Shown: one piece after another, positions 1-14,358 of the stretch
Layout: every line of letters begins with the position of its first letter
Position numbering within the stretch: the stretch's first letter is position 1
Source: a virus
Lineage: Duplodnaviria; Heunggongvirae; Uroviricota; Caudoviricetes
Strand: one strand, 5' to 3'
IMG/VR virus record: IMGVR_UViG_2585427970_000003
DNA: 51,664 nt
Position numbers and translations under genes: made by a program
The notes under the pieces: model-generated
Database searches by the model: none
Told to the model about the DNA's origin: nothing
The model's input: the letters and a program-made list of their open reading frames with translations, nothing else

Positions 1-19
1 CTATTTGATAAATATTAAA

Positions 20-1315
20 TTAATTTTTCATTGCTTCGTTATGGGGCATGGTTGGGGCAAACTCGCTTAACTGTGTATTTAACAAAGCTACCTGTGCATT
101 ATTGTTTTCAGACATCCATTTTCCGTATACCTGAAATACCATTTGCGCATCTGCATGGCCCATCTGGTTTGCTATAAATGCCGGGTTAGCACCAGCTGTC
201 AGCGACCAGCAGGCATAAGTATGTCTCGACTGATATGATTTTCGATGGCGGAGTCCGGCACGTTTTATCGCTGCGTCCCACATCTGCCTTATTGAGTCAA
301 CGGTAAAATGGTCACCATAATTTTTTACTCTCGCTGACACTTCAGGTTGAAAAACAAAGGTGCATTTTTGTTTTTCTGTTCTGCCATACTCTCTGAGGTG
401 AACATCAATGATATGCTCTTTGCTCAGTCTCGTTAATGTCATCTGACTCCGGAGAGCGTCGATTGCTGGCTTAATAAGATGAATGACCCGATTGGTTCCC
501 GCCTGTGTTTTTGGTACCGTGAAACGGTCTTTTGCTAAATTTCTCCTGATCATCATTGTTCCATTTTTCAGATCTATGTCCTCCCATCCAAGTGCACACA
601 GCTCACCAGGGCGAACTCCAGTATAAACAGAAACACACCATAAATTTTTTGCTTGCTGATTTCTGCACGCATCGATAAGACGGATAAATTCTTCCCGCGA
701 AAGAGGATCCGGAATGGTTCTTGATTCCTTTAATGGCGAGATCCCCTTAAACGGATTATCTGCCAGGTAACCGTTATCAACACCAAACTGGAACACGGCG
801 TTAAGATTTGTCATGTAATTATTTACAGTTACAGCCGATCTCCCTGGTTGTGTAACAATATAGTTACTTTTGGGGATCTGGTATCCAGTCAGTAACTCTT
901 TACGAACCTCCAGTAATTTTTCTTTATTAATCGATGAGGCAAGATTTTTTTCACCGATTATGCTCAGGATATTTTTGATGACGGCACGGTATGTGTTGAG
1001 TGATGTTTTGGCGACTTCAGTTTCTTTCAGTGCCAGAAATTTTTCAGCCAGTTCTTTTATGGTTAAATCTTGTCGGGCCTCACCAAATTTTTCCAGATTG
1101 CGTGAGGAGGGAAACTGTTTTGCATAGTCGAAAACACCAGTTTTTATTGCGTAACAAACAGAGGAGCGTAGTTCACCTGCAACGCGCCTGTTTTTTGCTG
1201 TGTCAGGAACCCCCAGATTTTCCCTGACTCTTACGTCTTTATAAACAAACCAGATACGTAATTTCCCTCCATGGTTTTCCACGCCTGTCGGATATTTCAT
1301 TTCAACTTCTCTCAT
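20..1315 (-). CDS. Phage tyrosine integrase
   Basis: 431-aa ORF at the prophage edge, C-terminal region with conserved His/Arg/Tyr-containing segment (SRHTYACWSL ... VFQVYGKW). Alternative start at Met6 (1300). Confidence 0.85.
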   Translation of the reverse strand: MREVEMKYPTGVENHGGKLRIWFVYKDVRVRENLGVPDTAKNRRVAGELRSSVCYAIKTGVFDYAKQFPSSRNLEKFGEARQDLTIKELAEKFLALKETEVAKTSLNTYRAVIKNILSIIGEKNLASSINKEKLLEVRKELLTGYQIPKSNYIVTQPGRSAVTVNNYMTNLNAVFQFGVDNGYLADNPFKGISPLKESRTIPDPLSREEFIRLIDACRNQQAKNLWCVSVYTGVRPGELCALGWEDIDLKNGTMMIRRNLAKDRFTVPKTQAGTNRVIHLIKPAIDALRSQMTLTRLSKEHIIDVHLREYGRTEKQKCTFVFQPEVSARVKNYGDHFTVDSIRQMWDAAIKRAGLRHRKSYQSRHTYACWSLTAGANPAFIANQMGHADAQMVFQVYGKWMSENNNAQVALLNTQLSEFAPTMPHNEAMKN

Positions 1316-1334
1316 TAGTTAGTGTGGCTTTTAG

Positions 1335-1586
1335 TCAAGTAAGATGACGTCTTGGTCTCGCTGATGCCTGGCGCTCAATCCAGCGATCAATTTCTTCCAG
1401 GTTGTAAAAGCATGGACTGTTATCCCATGGCATACCGTCATGAGCGACATGCTTATATTCCCTTCCTTCCATAAACGATTTTTCCCGGGCCTTTTTTAAC
1501 GTACCTTTTTTTATTCCTTTCAGCGCAATTAACTGCTCTTCGGATACCCATTTGCCGGGAGAGACAATCATGATTACTTCGCTCAT
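1335..1586 (-). CDS. Excisionase / AlpA-like DNA-binding protein
   Basis: 83-aa ORF immediately upstream of int on the same strand; small basic protein in the usual xis position. Confidence 0.55.
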   Translation of the reverse strand: MSEVIMIVSPGKWVSEEQLIALKGIKKGTLKKAREKSFMEGREYKHVAHDGMPWDNSPCFYNLEEIDRWIERQASARPRRHLT

Positions 1587-1658
1587 CGATTTCTTTATCT
1601 CTTACATCAGACGAGCGCCGGTTGCAGAATACCAGTCACAACCGGCGACAGTTGAACA

Positions 1659-4130
1659 TTAAGAATCAGCCTGACTCGGGATCAGTTTTTGCCAGATAAC
1701 TGAAACGTATTTTGCCTGGTAACGGGCGTCATCAAGTGCATTATGGCGCTCACCTTCGAATGGAATAGCCGTTCTGGCATCGAAGTCTATGGCTTTCCCC
1801 AGCTCAACGATTGTGCGTACATCGCGATCGTTGTAGTAACGCCACGGGCAGGGGATCCCCTGCCGTTCGTATGAACGGCGCAAAATCGTGTTGTCGAAGT
1901 TGGCTCCATTTCCCCAAACCTGAACAAAAAATTCACCGGAGTTTTCGTCGATAAATTCTCGCAATTGTAACAGTGCATCATCTAACGGGATTTCATCGGT
2001 CATAATGGCAGATTGCGCTTCGCGTGATTGCTTAAGCCACCATTTAATGGTGTCCCGATCAATGACTCCGCCAGCAGTTTCCAGATCGATAGTCTTACTA
2101 AATTCCGGTCCCATATCTCCGGTTTGCGGATCGAAAAATATTGCACCTATTGAGATGATCGGGGCATCAGGATTTTTTCCCATGGTTTCAAGGTCGATCA
2201 TTAGATGGTCACACGTCCTGCTGGTGGATGTGATTTCGTGATGACCGTTCACCTTAATTGGGTGATCTGCCGTCTCGCCAGTTTCATTATCGCTATTGTG
2301 ATGCTGATTGCCGCCAGTGTTCTCCTTGTGTGGATGTTCAGCGCCTTCCATTTCCTCCGGATCATCTTCCTGAACTTCAACCTGATACTCTTCATCGAAT
2401 GTTTCTTGGTATGTTGCGTCGCCCATCACCGCGCCACAATCAGGGCAGTTGCCGCCGCCGGTCTGACCGCAGGCGGTGCAGACTTTTTCCACTTCCTGTT
2501 GCGCTACTGGTTCAGGCTGTTTCGTTTCTGGCTCGTTTTGTAACGCATTTGGACTGTTTTGTTCCGCTTTTTGGTAGTTCCGTTCCGATTCATGCTGGTT
2601 CTGGTTCACAGAATCGCGGGTCTGGAGCCCCTTAACCCATTTCGGATCATTCGGGTCACTAATCCCTTCAACAAATTCACCACGTGATGCAGCAAGCAAC
2701 TTATCGGCGTCAGGCTGGCTGATATTGGCTGCCTGCATAATTTTGTTTACTTCGTCAGCGGTAACTTTTATCGGCTCTGGTTGTTCTGAATCTTCAGCGG
2801 TATCTACATTTTGCGGTAAGCCCGTGTATGTGCCATTTTTTCGGGCAAAATATTCTTCTTTTGTGATTTCAGTGGCGCCAGCAGCCAGTGCCTTATCCAG
2901 ACCAGAGAGTTTGTTTGCGCGACCGTATTTTTCTCCGTCCTTATCTGCGAAGAGGAAATAGAACGGCCCCTCACGCTCTACAGATGGTTCAGCTTCCGGC
3001 GCGGTTTCATTTTTTGGGATATCAGATACCTCAGTTTCCACTGCATCAGTTTGTGTTTCTGATGACTGGAGAACATCAACAGTGCCCAGGTCTGTTTCTT
3101 CATTCTCAAACACGCCCTTTGTCGTCAGGTATTCGCAGATATATTTGTTCAGTGCTACGGGATCTTTGTGAATGTCGATCGGACGCTCACGGACAAGGCC
3201 AAAAATAGTTTGGCGGTCGTAGCGAAGGGCATCAGGCTGTTTGCGCATTGATGCCGAGATACGCTTCCAGTCTTCGCGGTCGTTGTCGATAACTTCTTTT
3301 TTTGCCCAGCGATGGATGCTGCCGTCAATGTTTCCGGCATCCACATCACTAGGCCAGAGAGCGTAGGCCAGTTCGTCATCCAGTGTTTTCCATGTCTGCT
3401 TGTATTCGCGATGAATGGCAGCAATGACCGGGCTGATTTTTCCTGTTGAATTTTCAGTGTACTGTTGATTGGCTCTGGCGCGGGCGAGATCAACAACAGA
3501 CGTGTATTTTCCGGTTTCCTTGCGTTCACCTTCGCGACGTTTTTTCCAGATGCGCATCTCTGCCTGAATTTCGGGCCATTTAGCACCAGGAATACATTTA
3601 TGCTTAACCCACCCAATGGCGTGCAACTTAAGCTCCGGATACATGGCGTTAACTTCTGGCATTTTCATCAACGCTTCAACGATATGTCCGTCGAATGTTG
3701 CCATGTCTTCCTGCAACAATTCCTGTGCGCTAATAACCATATCAACGGTGATGTTTTCACATGTGTCGAACTTAACCATGACAGCGTTCTGTACTTCAGG
3801 GGCCAGCTTGTCAAAAGTGACGTTCATCGGATCGGATTCAGTCTCAACCGGGACAAAAGAAGCAGACTCCTCATCCCAGCGGTTTTCCTGCATATATTCA
3901 GCATCCCATGAATCGAGGGCAGGGCGGGGTATGCCAGGTTTATCCTCGCAGACAATAAATTTATAAGCGCAGTCCTGAGCAGCCGGATAATGTTCCAGGA
4001 ATTGCCAGTGAAATTTTGCTCGAGCACGGCGTTCGTCGCCAGCTTCAATGGCTGTGGCTACAGCCACAGCGCCTTCTTCCCTTGTTGCCAGTTCGTCAGG
4101 AATAGCGGCGCAAATAAAGACTTTACTCAT
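1659..4130 (-). CDS. RecE-like N-terminal region fused to a DnaQ-type (DEDDh) 3'-5' exonuclease domain
   Basis: C-terminal motifs DLETMG (Exo I), WGNGANFD (Exo II), HNALDDARY (Exo III); CxxC...CxxC cluster (CTACGQTGGGNCPDCG). Start chosen at MSKVF (4130) behind GAGG; ORF extends in frame to 4166. Probably the intact form of the gene truncated in K-12 Qin (ydfE), from memory. Confidence 0.7.
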   Translation of the reverse strand: MSKVFICAAIPDELATREEGAVAVATAIEAGDERRARAKFHWQFLEHYPAAQDCAYKFIVCEDKPGIPRPALDSWDAEYMQENRWDEESASFVPVETESDPMNVTFDKLAPEVQNAVMVKFDTCENITVDMVISAQELLQEDMATFDGHIVEALMKMPEVNAMYPELKLHAIGWVKHKCIPGAKWPEIQAEMRIWKKRREGERKETGKYTSVVDLARARANQQYTENSTGKISPVIAAIHREYKQTWKTLDDELAYALWPSDVDAGNIDGSIHRWAKKEVIDNDREDWKRISASMRKQPDALRYDRQTIFGLVRERPIDIHKDPVALNKYICEYLTTKGVFENEETDLGTVDVLQSSETQTDAVETEVSDIPKNETAPEAEPSVEREGPFYFLFADKDGEKYGRANKLSGLDKALAAGATEITKEEYFARKNGTYTGLPQNVDTAEDSEQPEPIKVTADEVNKIMQAANISQPDADKLLAASRGEFVEGISDPNDPKWVKGLQTRDSVNQNQHESERNYQKAEQNSPNALQNEPETKQPEPVAQQEVEKVCTACGQTGGGNCPDCGAVMGDATYQETFDEEYQVEVQEDDPEEMEGAEHPHKENTGGNQHHNSDNETGETADHPIKVNGHHEITSTSRTCDHLMIDLETMGKNPDAPIISIGAIFFDPQTGDMGPEFSKTIDLETAGGVIDRDTIKWWLKQSREAQSAIMTDEIPLDDALLQLREFIDENSGEFFVQVWGNGANFDNTILRRSYERQGIPCPWRYYNDRDVRTIVELGKAIDFDARTAIPFEGERHNALDDARYQAKYVSVIWQKLIPSQADS

Positions 4131-4222
4131 TTGTTTTAACCTCATGACAGATTTAAGGATGAACAAATCCCTGCCATTGCTGGCATATAAGAATGAAACC
4201 GGATATTTATTACGGAACTGTT

Positions 4223-4414
4223 TTAAAGACCTGCCGGGATTTCGATATTATCCTGGTGAATAACTTTATCGACCGGGTAACAGTTACCGGGAATTTTCTG
4301 TTCGGTTGCTGCAGTCATACACTCCTGCATTGTCCTGTGAACACTGACTGCAATATCAACTGGCTCTCCGGAAACAAGAAAAACTGTCAGAACAAGCACA
4401 AATGCTGAATTCAT
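4223..4414 (-). CDS. ydfD: YdfD small membrane lysis protein (63 aa)
   Basis: MNSAFVLVLTVFLVSGEP... N-terminal TM segment; length and position downstream of dicB match Qin ydfD; start overlaps dicB stop (ATGA). Confidence 0.7.
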   Translation of the reverse strand: MNSAFVLVLTVFLVSGEPVDIAVSVHRTMQECMTAATEQKIPGNCYPVDKVIHQDNIEIPAGL

Positions 4415-4599
4415 TGTGCACATCCTTTTGGCATCAGACGTAAACGAGCCAGCATTGAAACAATGCATATTTTATTTAATAGCTCCCGTTCTTGTTTTCT
4501 CTTGTTAATGGCATCTTCAGTAAATACTGGGTTACTGATAGTGACACCAATTTCAAAACAACCTTCAGACGTATTAACGTTTGGTAATAACGTTTTCAT
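4411..4599 (-). CDS. dicB: Cell division inhibitor DicB (62 aa)
   Basis: MKTLLPNVNTSEGCFEIGVTISNPVFTEDAINKRKQERELLNKICIVSMLARLRLMPKGCAQ matches DicB as I recall it; ORF track extends upstream to 4704, start taken at Met36. Confidence 0.85.
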   Translation of the reverse strand: MKTLLPNVNTSEGCFEIGVTISNPVFTEDAINKRKQERELLNKICIVSMLARLRLMPKGCAQ

Positions 4600-4773
4600 T
4601 ATCGCGTCCTCAACAATGAATTTTGTGATGCAGTGCCTGGTGCCTCCAGGTGACGTTAACCAGTTAACAATTAACGCCGGATACAGAGAATCCACCCATA
4701 ACACTGTTTTTGGTTTTAACTGTTCCGCGTGCGCTCAGCCGCATTCACCACATCACAAAATTCACTTTAAAAA

Positions 4774-4826
4774 GGGCGGCAGAGCAGTCACGGAGTAAAA
4801 CTGATACCGCCAAACGTCACCAGAAA
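4774..4826 (-). ncRNA. dicF: DicF small RNA
   Basis: Minus-strand sequence TTTCTGGTGACGTTTGGCGGTATCAGTTTTACTCCGTGACTGCTCTGCCGCCC followed by a T-run; matches the 53-nt DicF as recalled; lies between ydfC and dicB as in the dicB operon. Confidence 0.8.
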
Positions 4827-5166
4827 ATTGATAACAGAGGGCGTTGCAGCGGGGTTGTCACTTAAGCGTATGGTCAACCTGACAACCCGGTGTCCTCAAC
4901 GGGGAAGGAATAACCCCGCCATACTTACCGCCGCGCCATTTCGCGGGTTGCCACAACCGGAAGCGCACGGTCGACGAAAATTTAACGACAGGCTATCTAT
5001 GAACCAGCTACCTCGCCGTGCGCTTTCGCGTTATGGTCTGACTTTTCAGGGAAATATCCTTTCAGTAAACTGTCAGTTCCGGATGCGCACCCGTGTCCGG
5101 CGCACGCACTCCACCTCACCCGTGGAGAACTCCTTAATTACTAACCTTAGCTTTGTTGATTAGCTA

Positions 5167-5385
5167 CTAACGCGGGTATGTAATCATTCTGGCAATGCTT
5201 AATGCCGCTGCTTTTTCCAGATTGGTGATATCCTGCTCCAGAGCGGACAGATTTTCAGCCTGCTTAGCCCTGGCTTCATTAGCCCATTTCAGATCCTGCG
5301 CTGCATTAATTTTCTGGCGCATCCACTCATAAAGTTCATCATCGGTATAGTCTGGCGCGATGATGACGGGTTCTCGTTTCTGCAT
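5167..5385 (-). CDS. ydfC: YdfC (72 aa)
   Basis: 72-aa ORF in the expected position and order of the dicB operon. Confidence 0.65.
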   Translation of the reverse strand: MQKREPVIIAPDYTDDELYEWMRQKINAAQDLKWANEARAKQAENLSALEQDITNLEKAAALSIARMITYPR

Positions 5386-5414
5386 ACTGATTCCTCGCGG
5401 TGCTGTTTCGCTTA

Positions 5415-5543
5415 TCAGCCGTTAGATTTTGCCGAACTGGAAAGCGCCTGTTTAAACTCACTGAAGCTGAGAGCTTCTTCGCCTTCGGCAAGGCCTTCGA
5501 AGTATTCTTCGTAAGCCTTTTCCATGATTGTGTCGAAATCCAT
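5415..5543 (-). CDS. ydfB: YdfB (42 aa)
   Basis: Manual translation MDFDTIMEKAYEEYFEGLAEGEEALSFSEFKQALSSSAKSNG; below the ORF-track size cutoff. Confidence 0.6.
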   Translation of the reverse strand: MDFDTIMEKAYEEYFEGLAEGEEALSFSEFKQALSSSAKSNG

Positions 5544-5544
5544 A

Positions 5545-5700
5545 TCACTCACCTGAGTTTCTTTCCAGCCAGCGACGGGCACCATTTTCGGTTTTAAACG
5601 TTTTGCTTTTGGTATACGTCATTGCGGTGAACGTGCCGTCCTGGTTTGGAAACACGCCGTACACCAGAGATTCGTTGTTGCCAAGATCGATAGTATCCAT
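5545..5700 (-). CDS. ydfA: YdfA (51 aa)
   Basis: MDTIDLGNNESLVYGVFPNQDGTFTAMTYTKSKTFKTENGARRWLERNSGE; first gene leftward of dicA. Confidence 0.7.
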   Translation of the reverse strand: MDTIDLGNNESLVYGVFPNQDGTFTAMTYTKSKTFKTENGARRWLERNSGE

Positions 5701-5866
5701 GCTGACCTCATTTCCCCTTAACGCTGGGGTAGCGGAACTGTTTGCTGAGAACACCGTGCGGTGTGTTGATGCAAACAAGATTAGCCATGACTAACATATC
5801 GGTCAAGTGATTTTGTATGCTATAGCTAACATAATTGATGTGGTAAAAGATAACTCATTGATGATG

Positions 5867-6274
5867 TTATCTTTTATTTGTCCGCTGACGGGCTTTTAGT
5901 AATTCTTCAAAGAGTTTATTGAAGTTTTTTACTCGAGCTCGCATTTCGGCGAGCTGGGTATCCTGTTCTGATTCTGGCAGTGCATTAAACAGCTCAAGGA
6001 GCTCTAGTTCTTTGGGGGATAAGGCAACTGGCTTCTCAACAGGTGGTGTTGGTTGCTTGTCTTCATCGCCAAATAGAATCCATGTTGGTGAGCATTGCAA
6101 TACTTTGCTGAGGGCAAAAAGGTTCTTCCCTGTAGGTTCACTATCACCCCGTTCCCATTGTGATACAGACACATGGGAGATTTTCAGGGCTTTAGCAAGA
6201 GACCTTTGGGTGTGTTTGAGGTTTTTCCGACGATACCTGATGCGTTCGCCGATAGTTAAATTTTTTGTTTCCAT
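5867..6274 (-). CDS. dicA: DicA, CI-like HTH repressor
   Basis: 135-aa protein METKNLTIGERIRYRRKNLKHTQRSLAKALKISHVSVSQWERGD... (HTH_XRE), divergent from dicC. Confidence 0.9.
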   Translation of the reverse strand: METKNLTIGERIRYRRKNLKHTQRSLAKALKISHVSVSQWERGDSEPTGKNLFALSKVLQCSPTWILFGDEDKQPTPPVEKPVALSPKELELLELFNALPESEQDTQLAEMRARVKNFNKLFEELLKARQRTNKR

Positions 6275-6276
6275 AG

Positions 6277-6342
6277 TTAGCTAATGCTAAATCGTATTGA
6301 CTATGTTTTTGTTAACATCTATCTTGTTAGTTATGACTAACA
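6277..6342. promoter_or_regulatory. dicA/dicC divergent promoter-operator region
   Basis: Perfect palindromes TTAGC-TAAT-GCTAA (6277..6290) and TGTTAGT-TATG-ACTAACA (6325..6342); TTGACT -35-like hexamer at 6297..6302; the 10-mer ATGACTAACA recurs at 5787..5796 on the ydfA side of dicA. Confidence 0.55.
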
Positions 6343-6357
6343 ATAAAGGTGTTTTAA

Positions 6358-6588
6358 ATGCTTAAAACTGACGCTCTTTTGTATTTCGGTTCAAAAACAA
6401 AACTTGCACAAGCAGCAGGTATTCGTTTGGCTTCGCTTTATAGCTGGAAAGGGGATTTAGTTCCCGAAGGTCGCGCGATGCGTCTACAGGAGGCATCTGG
6501 CGGGGAGCTTCAGTATGATCCCAAAGTTTATGATGAATATCGTAAGACGAAGCGGGCGGGGCGGTTGAACAATGAAAATCACTCCTGA
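6358..6588 (+). CDS. dicC: DicC, Cro-like regulator
   Basis: 76-aa MLKTDALLYFGSKTKLAQAAGIRLASLYSWKGDLVPEG..., divergent from dicA. Confidence 0.85.
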   Translation: MLKTDALLYFGSKTKLAQAAGIRLASLYSWKGDLVPEGRAMRLQEASGGELQYDPKVYDEYRKTKRAGRLNNENHS

Positions 6589-7093
6589 ACAGGCTCGTGA
6601 GGCTCTGGATGCCTGGATATGTCGACCAGGAATGACACAGGAGCAGGCGACGATATTAATCACTGAAGCATTCTGGGCTTTGAAAGAGCGCCCGAACATC
6701 GATGTTCAGCGTGTCACATATGAAGGTGGCGCGATTGATCAGCGAGCGCTTGGCGTTAATCGAGTGAAGATATTTGAACGCTGGAAGGCTATCGACACCA
6801 GGGATAAGCGTGAAAAGTTCACGGCGCTAGTGCCTGCAATTATGGAGGCTATCCGGATTAATGATTTCAGGTTGTATCGTGAAATTACTGACGGAAAAAG
6901 CATCACGTGCATGATCGCCGGGTTAAACAAAGAATATGGCGATGTGGTGGAGTCCGGACTGCTTTTTGCTGATCCTGCCGTAGTGGATCGTGAAACTGAC
7001 GAACTTATAGAAAAAGCAATTGCTTTCAAACTTGCGTATCGACAGCAATACCAACAAAAAGCTGGATGGAATTATGAGCCTTCTTTTTGCTGA
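6572..7093 (+). CDS. YdaT-like protein (CII-position gene)
   Basis: 173 aa; shares the MKI..E......AW...KIF.RW...DT......ALVPAI pattern recalled from Rac YdaT; directly follows the cro-like gene. Confidence 0.5.
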   Translation: MKITPEQAREALDAWICRPGMTQEQATILITEAFWALKERPNIDVQRVTYEGGAIDQRALGVNRVKIFERWKAIDTRDKREKFTALVPAIMEAIRINDFRLYREITDGKSITCMIAGLNKEYGDVVESGLLFADPAVVDRETDELIEKAIAFKLAYRQQYQQKAGWNYEPSFC

Positions 7094-8039
7094 ACGCCCA
7101 CTGGTTATAAACACGCAGCTGGCAATGAAAATTGGCTTAAACGAAGCCATTGTTTTGCAACAACTGCACTACTGGTTGAGAGATACCAACTCCGGCATGG
7201 AATGTGATGGTGTTCGCTGGATTTATAACACAACGGAACAATGGCTGGAACAGTTCCCATTCTGGTCAGAGTCAACGTTAAAGCGCGCGTTTGCAAGTCT
7301 GAAAACGCTGGGGCTTTTGCGTTGTGAAAAGCTCAATAAATCAAAGCGCGATATGACCAATTTCTACACGATCAACTATGGGAGCGAGCTTTTAGATGGT
7401 GGCAAATTGAGCGAATCCATCGGTTCAAAATGCGCCGCTCCATCAGGTCAAAATGACACGATGGAAGAGGTCAAAATGAAACGCTCCATTGGTTCAAAAC
7501 GACCCAATGTCATCGGGTCAAAATGGCCTGATGATCTTACAGAGAATACAACAGAGATTACTACAGAGAATAAAAACACTTTTCGTCCGGAAGCTTCGCA
7601 ACCGGACCCGCAGACGACTGAACAGGATTTTTTAACCCGGAACTCCGACGCGGTTGTGTTTAGTGCGAAAAAACGCCAGTGGGGTAGCAGGGAGGATTTG
7701 GCGTGTGCGCAGTGGATCTGGGGGCGGATCGTGGGTCTCTACGAACAGGCAGCCAGTGATGATGGCGAGATCATGCGACCAAAAGAGCCTAACTGGACTG
7801 CCTGGGCCAATGACGTGCGCACAATGCGGATGCTGGATGGCAGAAGCCACAGACAAATTTGCGAAATGTTTGGTCGGGTTCAGCGAGATCCATTCTGGGT
7901 AAAAAACATCATGAGCCCGTCAAAGCTCCGCGAAAAATGGGACGAACTGGTCATCCGCCTGGGACGTTCACCTGTACAGCGTTGTGTTAATCATATTTCT
8001 GAACCGGATACAGAAATTCCGCCTGGTTTCAGAGGATAA
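7074..8039 (+). CDS. Replication initiator (O-like), iterons within coding sequence
   Basis: Central region encodes repeated IGSK peptides from five DNA iterons; ORF track starts at 7020 but ATG 7074 gives minimal overlap with upstream gene. Confidence 0.6.
   Translation: MSLLFAERPLVINTQLAMKIGLNEAIVLQQLHYWLRDTNSGMECDGVRWIYNTTEQWLEQFPFWSESTLKRAFASLKTLGLLRCEKLNKSKRDMTNFYTINYGSELLDGGKLSESIGSKCAAPSGQNDTMEEVKMKRSIGSKRPNVIGSKWPDDLTENTTEITTENKNTFRPEASQPDPQTTEQDFLTRNSDAVVFSAKKRQWGSREDLACAQWIWGRIVGLYEQAASDDGEIMRPKEPNWTAWANDVRTMRMLDGRSHRQICEMFGRVQRDPFWVKNIMSPSKLREKWDELVIRLGRSPVQRCVNHISEPDTEIPPGFRG
7416..7574. repeat. Putative replication origin: five ~23-bp-spaced iterons plus 3x ACAGAGA(A/T)TA repeats
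   Basis: Iterons with core GGT(T)CAAAA at 7422, 7446, 7469, 7491, 7515; followed by ACAGAGAATA (7541), ACAGAGATTA (7553), ACAGAGAATA (7565). Confidence 0.6.
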
Positions 8040-8079
8040 GTGTTGATTTCAGGTCATGAGGTAATTTTAAGGGGGACTT

Positions 8080-8502
8080 GTGGCAAAAGTTTTTACACAA
8101 GAAGAGCGGGAAAAAATTAAATGGCAGGTGGTGGAACTCGTGCGCCAGAGCGGCCGTGAGACGTTACGGCAACTGGAAGCTAAAACAGGTGCGACTAGAT
8201 ATCTGATGAGCGTTCTTGCCAGAGAGCTGGTAGCCAGTGGCGATGTATACAACTCCGGCTACGGGTTATTCCCCTCTGAACAGGCGCGTAAGGACTGGCA
8301 AAACGCCCGCAAAAAACTCTCGAGGGCAAAGGTGAAGAAACCTGCTGTGGTTGATCCGGACCTTATCTGGTCATCACCTGACGGAGAAATACGTCGCTAC
8401 GACAGTCGCCTAAACATAATCTGTCGCGAGTGCCGGAAGAGCGAAGTTATGCAGCGCATACTGGCTTTCTATCAGGGTAATTTTCAGGACGTGGCGCAGT
8501 GA
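8080..8502 (+). CDS. Hypothetical protein (140 aa)
   Basis: Intact ORF with no motif I can assign; stop overlaps the start of the methyltransferase remnant. Confidence 0.4.
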   Translation: MAKVFTQEEREKIKWQVVELVRQSGRETLRQLEAKTGATRYLMSVLARELVASGDVYNSGYGLFPSEQARKDWQNARKKLSRAKVKKPAVVDPDLIWSSPDGEIRRYDSRLNIICRECRKSEVMQRILAFYQGNFQDVAQ

Positions 8503-8945
8503 GTGCACCGGCAACCATTCTTGATATGTGCTGTGGCAGCCGCATGTTCTGGTTCGATAAGTCTGACGAACGGGCGATATTCAGCGATATCAGAAAAGAA
8601 GGATACACATTACGCAATGGGAGACGCTTGATTATCAGCCCTGACATTATCGCAGATTTTCGTGCATTATCATTTGCAGACGCATCTTTTTCGATGGTTG
8701 TATTAGACCCTCCGCATCTTGAGAGTGTTGGTGATAACGCCTGGATGGGAAAGAAATATGGACGGCTGAATAAAGATGCCTGGCGTGATGATTCGCGACA
8801 GAGATTTAAAGAAGCCTTTCGGGTGTTGAGGCCGCACGGCGTTCTGATTTTTTAATGGAATGAAACGCAAATACCGGTAAGCCAGATTCTGGCACTGACA
8901 GACAGAAAACCTGTTATCTGTCAACGAACAGGGAAAAAACGATAA
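8499..8945 (+). pseudogene. SAM-dependent amino-methyltransferase with premature in-frame TAA
   Basis: Motif I-like LDMCCGSRM and motif IV DPPH; TAA at 8853..8855 followed by 29 sense codons in the same frame (WNETQIPVSQILALTDRKPVICQRTGKKR) to TAA at 8943. Confidence 0.55.
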
Positions 8946-9117
8946 AACCCACTGGATTATTTTTATGAAAGAGGCATCCAGTGAGTAGATTCGTAAGGCT
9001 ACAGATACGTATATCTGAATAATTAAATTCAGTTCTGTAAATAAAATTTAATCCTTAACCGGATGGATTTCTGCACCCTCAGAACATCAGGAGGCCGCCC
9101 GAAAGGGCGGTAGTGAA

Positions 9118-14106: not shown

Positions 14107-14358
14107 ATGATGAACATCGAAGAACTGCGTAAAATTTTTTGTGAAGATGGCCTCTATGCTGTGTGCGTTGAAAATGGAAATCTTGTTAGTCATTACCGCA
14201 TTATGTGTTTGCGAAAGAATGGGGCTGCGTTAATTAATTTTGTGGATGCTCGGGTCACGGACGGATTTATCTTGCGCGAAGGTGAGTTTGTCACTTCATT
14301 ACAGGCATTGAAAGAGATCGGAATAAAAGCTGGCTTTTCTGCTTTTTCAGGAGAATAA
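14107..14358 (+). CDS. rem: Rem
   Basis: 83 aa MMNIEELRKIFCEDGLYAVCVENGNLVSHYRIMCLRKNGAALINF... Confidence 0.7.
   Translation: MMNIEELRKIFCEDGLYAVCVENGNLVSHYRIMCLRKNGAALINFVDARVTDGFILREGEFVTSLQALKEIGIKAGFSAFSGE

Follow-up and report, generated by a model that had tools for sequence, protein, structure and literature searches.

Known systems

Among described systems, the dicA-dicC-dicBp locus of the Qin (Kim) prophage of Escherichia coli K-12 (Bejar, Bouche and Bouche 1988; Yun et al. 2012; Ragunathan and Vanderpool 2023) is the same locus as the one considered here. The arrangement is already known, its layout having been described since 1988. Yun 2012 (PMC3441716) gives the operator Oc as 5'-TTGTTAGTCATAACTAACAA, with the -35 and -10 elements of dicC marked beside it, and reports that DicA represses through Oc in vivo, that a single A-to-C change in Oc abolishes DicA binding in vivo with loss of repression, and that DicA also activates dicA. 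The same paper states that Om and Oa, when cloned alone, were not bound by DicA (data not shown), and that their definition in Bejar 1988 had been made by sequence only. According to Ragunathan and Vanderpool 2023 (PMC10448788), who cite Bejar 1988 and Yun 2012, the dicA-dicC and dicA-dicBp intergenic regions carry operators like those of lambda PR and PL. Deletion of dicA raises dicBp activity 22-fold, deletion of dicC leaves it unchanged, and Rem is identified as an antirepressor (PMC10448788). From DicC ChIP-seq, one site has been inferred on either side of dicA. The Reg-Seq authors (PMC7567609) class the DicA site for dicB as low-evidence and its location as unknown.

The sites described below are very probably the operators of the DicA/DicC switch, laid out as a right and a left cluster (OR/OL) in the manner of P22 immC. 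A first-pass annotation of the same DNA had pointed to a resemblance to an OL/OR arrangement; this reading matches the published model and is supported here by the positional homology with P22, by the boundaries of the immunity cassette and by the covariation of operator and recognition helix, with site statistics as a further basis. What is added to the known layout is twofold. The left sites, whose position a recent survey of regulation entered as unknown, are placed precisely within the core promoter of dicBp, and comparative evidence shows that these sites are part of the immunity cassette and track the specificity of the repressor.

The prophage and its divergent repressor pair

The window, meaning the whole stretch of DNA that was analysed, is 51,664 bases long. 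Sequence comparison of a 1.4-kb stretch around dicA with E. coli ATCC 8739 gives 100% identity. The RefSeq genes around dicA are ydfD, dicB, ydfC, ydfB, ydfA and dicA on one strand, with dicC, a YdaT-family gene and replication genes on the opposite strand, and Rfam places DicF at 4774-4825 on the minus strand. The perfect match to the Qin region of ATCC 8739, the RefSeq gene set and DicF together identify a Qin-type lambdoid prophage, which adjoins rspAB and carries an integrase, an excisionase and an exonuclease. Its repressor and cro-like genes form a divergent pair:

5867..6274, minus strand: dicA, a repressor of 135 amino acids whose N-terminal helix-turn-helix (HTH) is homologous to the N-terminal domain of P22 C2
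6358..6588, plus strand: dicC, a Cro-like protein of 76 amino acids (Pfam P22_Cro)

The domain matches of DicA are HTH_3 and Phage_CI_repr, and its N-terminal domain matches the operator-complex structures of P22 C2 (1adr, 2r1j, 3jxb) with an E value of about 1e-19. The C-terminal domain is short and helical. No Peptidase_S24 match, which would indicate an autocleavage domain with its Ala-Gly site and Ser-Lys dyad, is found in the 135 residues, in agreement with the literature (PMC10448788), and the repressor alignment contains no counterpart of the P22 C2 C-terminal domain in DicA. Lacking the S24 domain, DicA does not fall into the class of LexA/CI-type, SOS-cleavable repressors.

PhiR42_1, an inducible phage from ECOR13, encodes a DicA that is 100% identical and is annotated as cI. 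The presence of an identical DicA in an inducible phage implies that the DicA switch is a working phage immunity system in nature, beyond the relic found in K-12.

The right-side operators

On the dicC side, alignment of the annotated P22 immC with the Qin region equates Oc with OR1, Om with OR2 and Oa with OR3; the Oa and Om assignments used here rest on this alignment.

6324..6343, no strand: Oc, equivalent of OR1, a perfect 8-4-8 palindrome TTGTTAGT-TATG-ACTAACAA, the experimentally established DicA operator
6299..6318, no strand: Om, equivalent of OR2, ACTATGTTTTTGTTAACATC, weak and degenerate, aligned with P22 OR2
6274..6293, no strand: Oa, equivalent of OR3, TAGTTAGC-TAAT-GCTAAATC, with a TTAG-N6-CTAA core, aligned with P22 OR3
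6297..6325, plus strand: dicCp, a PR-like promoter with -35 TTGACT (6297-6302), a 17-bp spacer and -10 TATCTT (6320-6325), from a promoter scan and the alignment with P22 PR

The centres of Oc, Om and Oa lie 25 bp apart, as a tripartite operator. Oc, whose published sequence is found in the window in exact reverse complement, reaches over the final 2 bases of the dicCp -10 and over the start region. Om covers the -35 and the spacer, midway (25 bp) between Oa and Oc, and is a 76% direct repeat of the second site on the ydfA side (5813-5832). Oa directly adjoins the start codon of dicA (ATG at 6274). By sequence, only Oc is strong among the right-side sites.

The first-pass annotation had pointed out two palindromes between the divergent starts. 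That of TGTTAGT-TATG-ACTAACA, placed at 6325-6342, is in the right position, its full extent being the longer 8-4-8 palindrome of the published Oc. The other, TTAGC-TAAT-GCTAA, was correctly read and located at 6277-6290, in Oa, and its standing as an operator is weaker, the site being statistically unremarkable and reportedly unbound when alone. Palindromes of the 5-4-5 kind are common in the window (92, against about 49 in shuffled sequence), and so this one has no significance by itself; it has 3 mismatches to the operator consensus, a class with 16 sites where 19 are expected. Oa-like sequences are also fairly alike among heteroimmune relatives. Since Oa is indistinct from chance and its like recurs in those relatives, its conservation may reflect the promoter or start of dicA and not the specificity of the repressor.

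A 7-4-7 palindrome, GTTTTAA-ATGC-TTAAAAC, spans the start codon of dicC at 6351-6368. It is probably not a conserved structure, a frequent natural T-to-C variant in it being uncompensated and the palindrome being absent in Citrobacter and Serratia.

The repeated 10-mer and the count of sites

The 10-mer ATGACTAACA recurs on both sides of dicA, at 5787-5796 and 6333-6342, exactly where the first-pass annotation had it. It is found 3 times in the 51,664-base window against 0.09 expected, and the two copies that flank dicA sit within a 16-nt repeat, TTAGCCATGACTAACA / TTAGTTATGACTAACA. The copy on the ydfA side is the right half of an imperfect 20-bp palindrome at 5778-5797 that had gone unremarked, and the sites at 5813-5832 and 6299-6318 had both been missed. 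The core TTAG-N6-CTAA occurs exactly 3 times in the window (5781, 6277 and 6327), always beside dicA, with 0.43 expected. Likewise, exactly 3 sites in the window have at most 2 mismatches to TGTTAG-N6-CTAACA (5779, 5814 and 6325), and all of them flank dicA.

The third copy of the 10-mer (14184-14193, minus strand) falls within the coding region of rem, whose product is the published antirepressor of DicA. The plus strand there reads TTGTTAGTCAT, which matches 11 nt of Oc. A lone half-site without a palindromic partner, this copy is probably due to chance. A search for further operator copies in a close related genome returned only an unrelated palindrome.

The probable left-side operators and dicBp

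In the alignment with P22 immC, the sites at 5778-5797 and 5813-5832 take the places of OL1 and OL2. The labels Ob1 and Ob2 are coined in this analysis.

5778..5797, no strand: left operator 1 (Ob1), equivalent of OL1, AGATTAGC-CATG-ACTAACAT, with 2 mismatches to the consensus, containing the 10-mer
5813..5832, no strand: left operator 2 (Ob2), equivalent of OL2, TTGTATGC-TATA-GCTAACAT, with 2 mismatches to the consensus
5778..5806, minus strand: predicted core promoter of dicBp, PL-like, with -35 TTGACC (5806..5801), a 17-bp spacer and -10 TAATCT (5783..5778)

Read on the minus strand, Ob1 is ATGTTAGT-CATG-GCTAATCT (5797..5778) and Ob2 is ATGTTAGC-TATA-GCATACAA (5832..5813). The two are 35 bp apart from centre to centre, Ob2 being located just upstream of the dicBp -35 while Ob1 fills the spacer and -10 of the predicted promoter, which accounts for the departure of its promoter-proximal half from the consensus. 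The dicBp hexamers TTGACC and TAATCT fall below the threshold of a generic promoter scan, and the promoter was read from the sequence. Its layout is also present in Citrobacter. Transcription from dicBp is predicted to start near 5770-5771: the leftward transcript of P22 is annotated from the A of ATCAGCA, and the Qin equivalent, ATCAACA, puts the start at about 5770.

Operators of the same consensus are thus found in a PL-type promoter across dicA from dicC, and no other site in the window comes as close to that consensus. We infer from the sequence that DicA occupies both left sites. At the position of P22 OL3 (about 5832-5851) no third left operator can be recognised, though the literature speaks of three.

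At 5844-5876 there is an AT-rich inverted repeat with perfect 11-bp arms, TAAAAGATAAC / GTTATCTTTTA, and a loop of 11 nt. It overlaps the stop codon of dicA, and a short T run comes after it on the minus strand; another haplotype has CGCA-ATCAA-TGCG and a T run in this place. The repeat is probably a weak terminator that insulates the co-oriented dicB operon from read-through out of dicA.

The stretch from the predicted start of dicBp to the ATG of ydfA (5701-5771, minus strand) is a leader whose sequence, above all at 5712-5734, is conserved even in heteroimmune phages. One hairpin in it is ACACC-GCAC-GGTGT. Another element, CGCY-A-CCCC-RGCG-TTAA-GGGG, can fold either into one of two overlapping hairpins or into an H-type pseudoknot, and compensatory changes occur in both stems among E. 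coli variants, Citrobacter, Serratia and phage phiES15. The leader matches no Rfam family, has no second copy within the window, and gives no blastn similarity to phages other than Qin-type relatives. As regards a boxA/boxB nut module, it has no clear boxA, and the first gene, ydfA (DUF1391), does not encode an arginine-rich N protein. The leader might function like a nut or put site, or it might act in the translation of ydfA.

Natural variation, specificity and the immunity cassette

The 80 IMG/VR loci retrieved, whose DicA proteins are 93-100% identical, yield 25 right-side and 34 left-side haplotypes. The outer TGTTAG/CTAACA of Oc is invariant in the 25, and the half-sites of Ob1 are invariant in the 34. 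Across haplotypes TGTTAG, the central AT and CTAA(CA) do not vary, transitions are found at operator positions 7, 8, 11 and 12, and the bases directly beside the sites change freely. This pattern is identical in Oc, Ob1 and Ob2 and gives a working DicA motif of 18 bp, TGTTAG-YYATRR-CTAACA. The transition hot spots within operator positions 7-12 lie at 6331-6336, 5785-5790 and 5820-5825 of the window. By analogy, positions 7, 8, 11 and 12 resemble the central bases of P22 operators, which are not contacted, and variation in them may adjust affinity.

More distant relatives preserve the same arrangement. DicA of Citrobacter sp. NCU1 is 73% identical and that of Serratia rubidaea 64%, and both share with Qin the recognition helix SHVSVSQWER. 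Both relatives have Oc and Oa upstream of the repressor gene and a further two sites on its downstream side, although the intervening DNA has diverged; the TTAG-N6-CTAA core of Oa, Ob1 and Ob2 are kept despite their diverged surroundings. In Serratia the asymmetric left site is inverted, as expected for a dimer site.

Where the recognition helix changes, the operator changes with it. The helix SHVSVSQWER goes with TGTTAG-YYATRR-CTAACA, AHVTISQWE(R/T) with TTAG-AyTTTy-CTAA (PPompW phages, phage BUCT709 and an E. coli blood isolate), and SGSSISLWES with TTGAG-N4-CTCAA (TTGAG-TTTT-CTCAA in the E. coli E15 prophage). Every heteroimmune relative examined has the altered palindrome on both sides of the repressor gene. 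In comparison with the E15 prophage, identity is 99% up to 5771 and 98% from 6460 on, with no homology at 5772-6459, and heteroimmune phages have the leader in common only from about 5771-5774 leftward. These breaks at 5771/5772 and 6459/6460 imply that the left operators belong to an exchangeable immunity cassette, in which operators and repressor are exchanged as one unit:

5772..6459, no strand: exchangeable immunity cassette, with both left operators, dicA, Oa/Om/Oc and the first third of dicC

Its left boundary coincides exactly with the predicted transcription start of dicBp.

Within the repressors themselves the HTH half is swapped, while the C-terminal helical half (ALPESEQ...NFNKLFEELLKARK; window 6038-6103) is conserved across heteroimmune types. 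Sequence conservation of this kind suggests that the C-terminal half of DicA may be a common module for dimerisation or a target of antirepressors.

Alternative readings

One alternative is that the shared 10-mer and the palindromes arose by chance or remain from a duplication, and that they regulate nothing on the ydfA side; repression of dicB by DicA would then have to be indirect, perhaps by way of dicC. The database entry that leaves the DicA site for dicB without a location (PMC7567609) and the abundance of short palindromes in the window are compatible with this, but the excess of the 10-mer (3 copies for 0.09 expected) and the clustering of all consensus-like sites around dicA speak against it. 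Diverged genera have, moreover, retained the sites, operators on either side of the repressor gene change in step with the recognition helix in heteroimmune cassettes, and dicBp is induced 22-fold by loss of dicA and does not respond to loss of dicC (PMC10448788), so that coincidence is very hard to credit. A more serious question is whether Oc and the site at 5778-5797 are the only true DicA operators, Oa and Om being either sites preferred by DicC for the shut-off of dicA, as Cro acts at OR3, or parts of the promoter or near-leaderless start of dicA. Neither site bound DicA when cloned alone (Yun 2012, PMC3441716), Oa with its 3 mismatches does not stand out statistically and looks alike across heteroimmune relatives, and the PRM transcript of P22 starts 4 nt before the c2 ATG, inside OR3. 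Yet Oa and Om match position for position P22 OR3 and OR2, which are real C2 sites, an assay of isolated sites is blind to cooperative binding, and Citrobacter and Serratia have preserved the TTAG-N6-CTAA core of Oa. A restriction of DicA to Oc and the 5778-5797 site is therefore a real possibility, if a somewhat doubtful one.

The left and right clusters could also act jointly if DicA held them together in a DNA loop of about 546 bp with dicA inside, in the way that lambda CI joins OL and OR; the 10-mer would then serve long-range cooperativity and not two independent repressions. Sites of the same consensus do lie 546 bp apart, about 52 helical turns, and the helical C-terminal domain of DicA, conserved among heteroimmune repressors, could mediate oligomerisation. 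However, DicA is without the C-terminal domain of the lambda and P22 repressors, and the spacing between Oc and the left site varies, from 541 bp in Serratia through 546 in E. coli to 551 in Citrobacter. These distances differ by half-turns among the three genera, so the helical phase is not conserved and long-range looping, while possible, is unsupported; we consider it unlikely. An extended form of this idea, in which the C-terminal domain of DicA bridges the left pair and the right triplet over about 546 bp, the occupancy of Oa and Om and the autoregulation of dicA depend on the loop, and the polymorphism at positions 7, 8, 11 and 12 tunes affinity by indirect readout, is speculative and seems improbable. 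If it were true, operator polymorphism would set the switching threshold of each prophage.

A working model of the switch

The preferred reading remains that of DicA/DicC operators in two clusters with an OR/OL layout. DicA dimers, through an HTH like that of P22 C2, would recognise the 18-bp motif derived above. Because Oc overlaps the -10 and start of dicCp, DicA bound there would block dicC and the replication genes, and from the same site, following Yun 2012, it would also activate dicA. On the left sites DicA would keep RNA polymerase off dicBp and silence ydfABC-dicF-dicB. Repression of dicC and dicBp by DicA is itself established in the literature. Oc and the 5778-5797 site would both act by promoter occlusion, whereas the 5813-5832 site is likely auxiliary or cooperative. 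DicC, as a Cro-like protein, would shut off dicA through the same two regions, giving a bistable switch. Filling of Oa and Om probably requires cooperative binding, or is mainly the work of DicC.

The DicA/DicC switch silences the toxic division inhibitors DicB and DicF and, in intact relatives, a whole phage. Exact operators are useful for building reporters and for studying how the switch is flipped by Rem, urea or heat.

Comparison with K-12 Qin, P22 and lambda

In K-12 Qin the gene order is identical (dicB-dicF-ydfCBA, dicA, dicC), DicA and DicC here are of the ATCC 8739/K-12 type, and the switch itself shows no difference. The K-12 prophage is more decayed, while the prophage here (window about 1-9000) retains the integrase, the excisionase, a RecE-like exonuclease and the replication genes.

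P22 immC resembles Qin in most of its architecture. The N-terminal domain of C2 is 59% identical to DicA over residues 8-70. Both systems have three right sites at the same positions, the third adjoining the ATG of the repressor (c2 in P22), a PR -35 of TTGACT, an identical PL -35 region (CACTTGACC) with an ATCA start context, and a spacing of 35 bp between OL2 and OL1. The geometry of the 14-bp core is also common, TTAAG-N4-CTTAA in P22 and TTAGY-N4-RCTAA in Qin, but the half-site sequence differs and so, therefore, does the specificity. Other differences are that the C-terminal domain of C2 is unrelated to the short one of DicA, which is without the S24 autocleavage domain, and that DicA is relieved instead by the antirepressor Rem (PMC10448788). 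P22 has OL1-3, whereas Qin has no clear third left site, and the left operon opens with ydfA in Qin and with the N-type gene 24 in P22.

The lambda CI/Cro system differs from Qin in its operator sequence and in the C-terminal domain of its repressor, and its operator clusters are 2.3 kb apart against about 0.55 kb in Qin. What the two have in common is a divergent repressor and cro pair, a tripartite right operator, left operators within a PL-type promoter beyond the repressor gene, and a bistable switch behaviour, as reported for DicA/DicC (PMC10448788).
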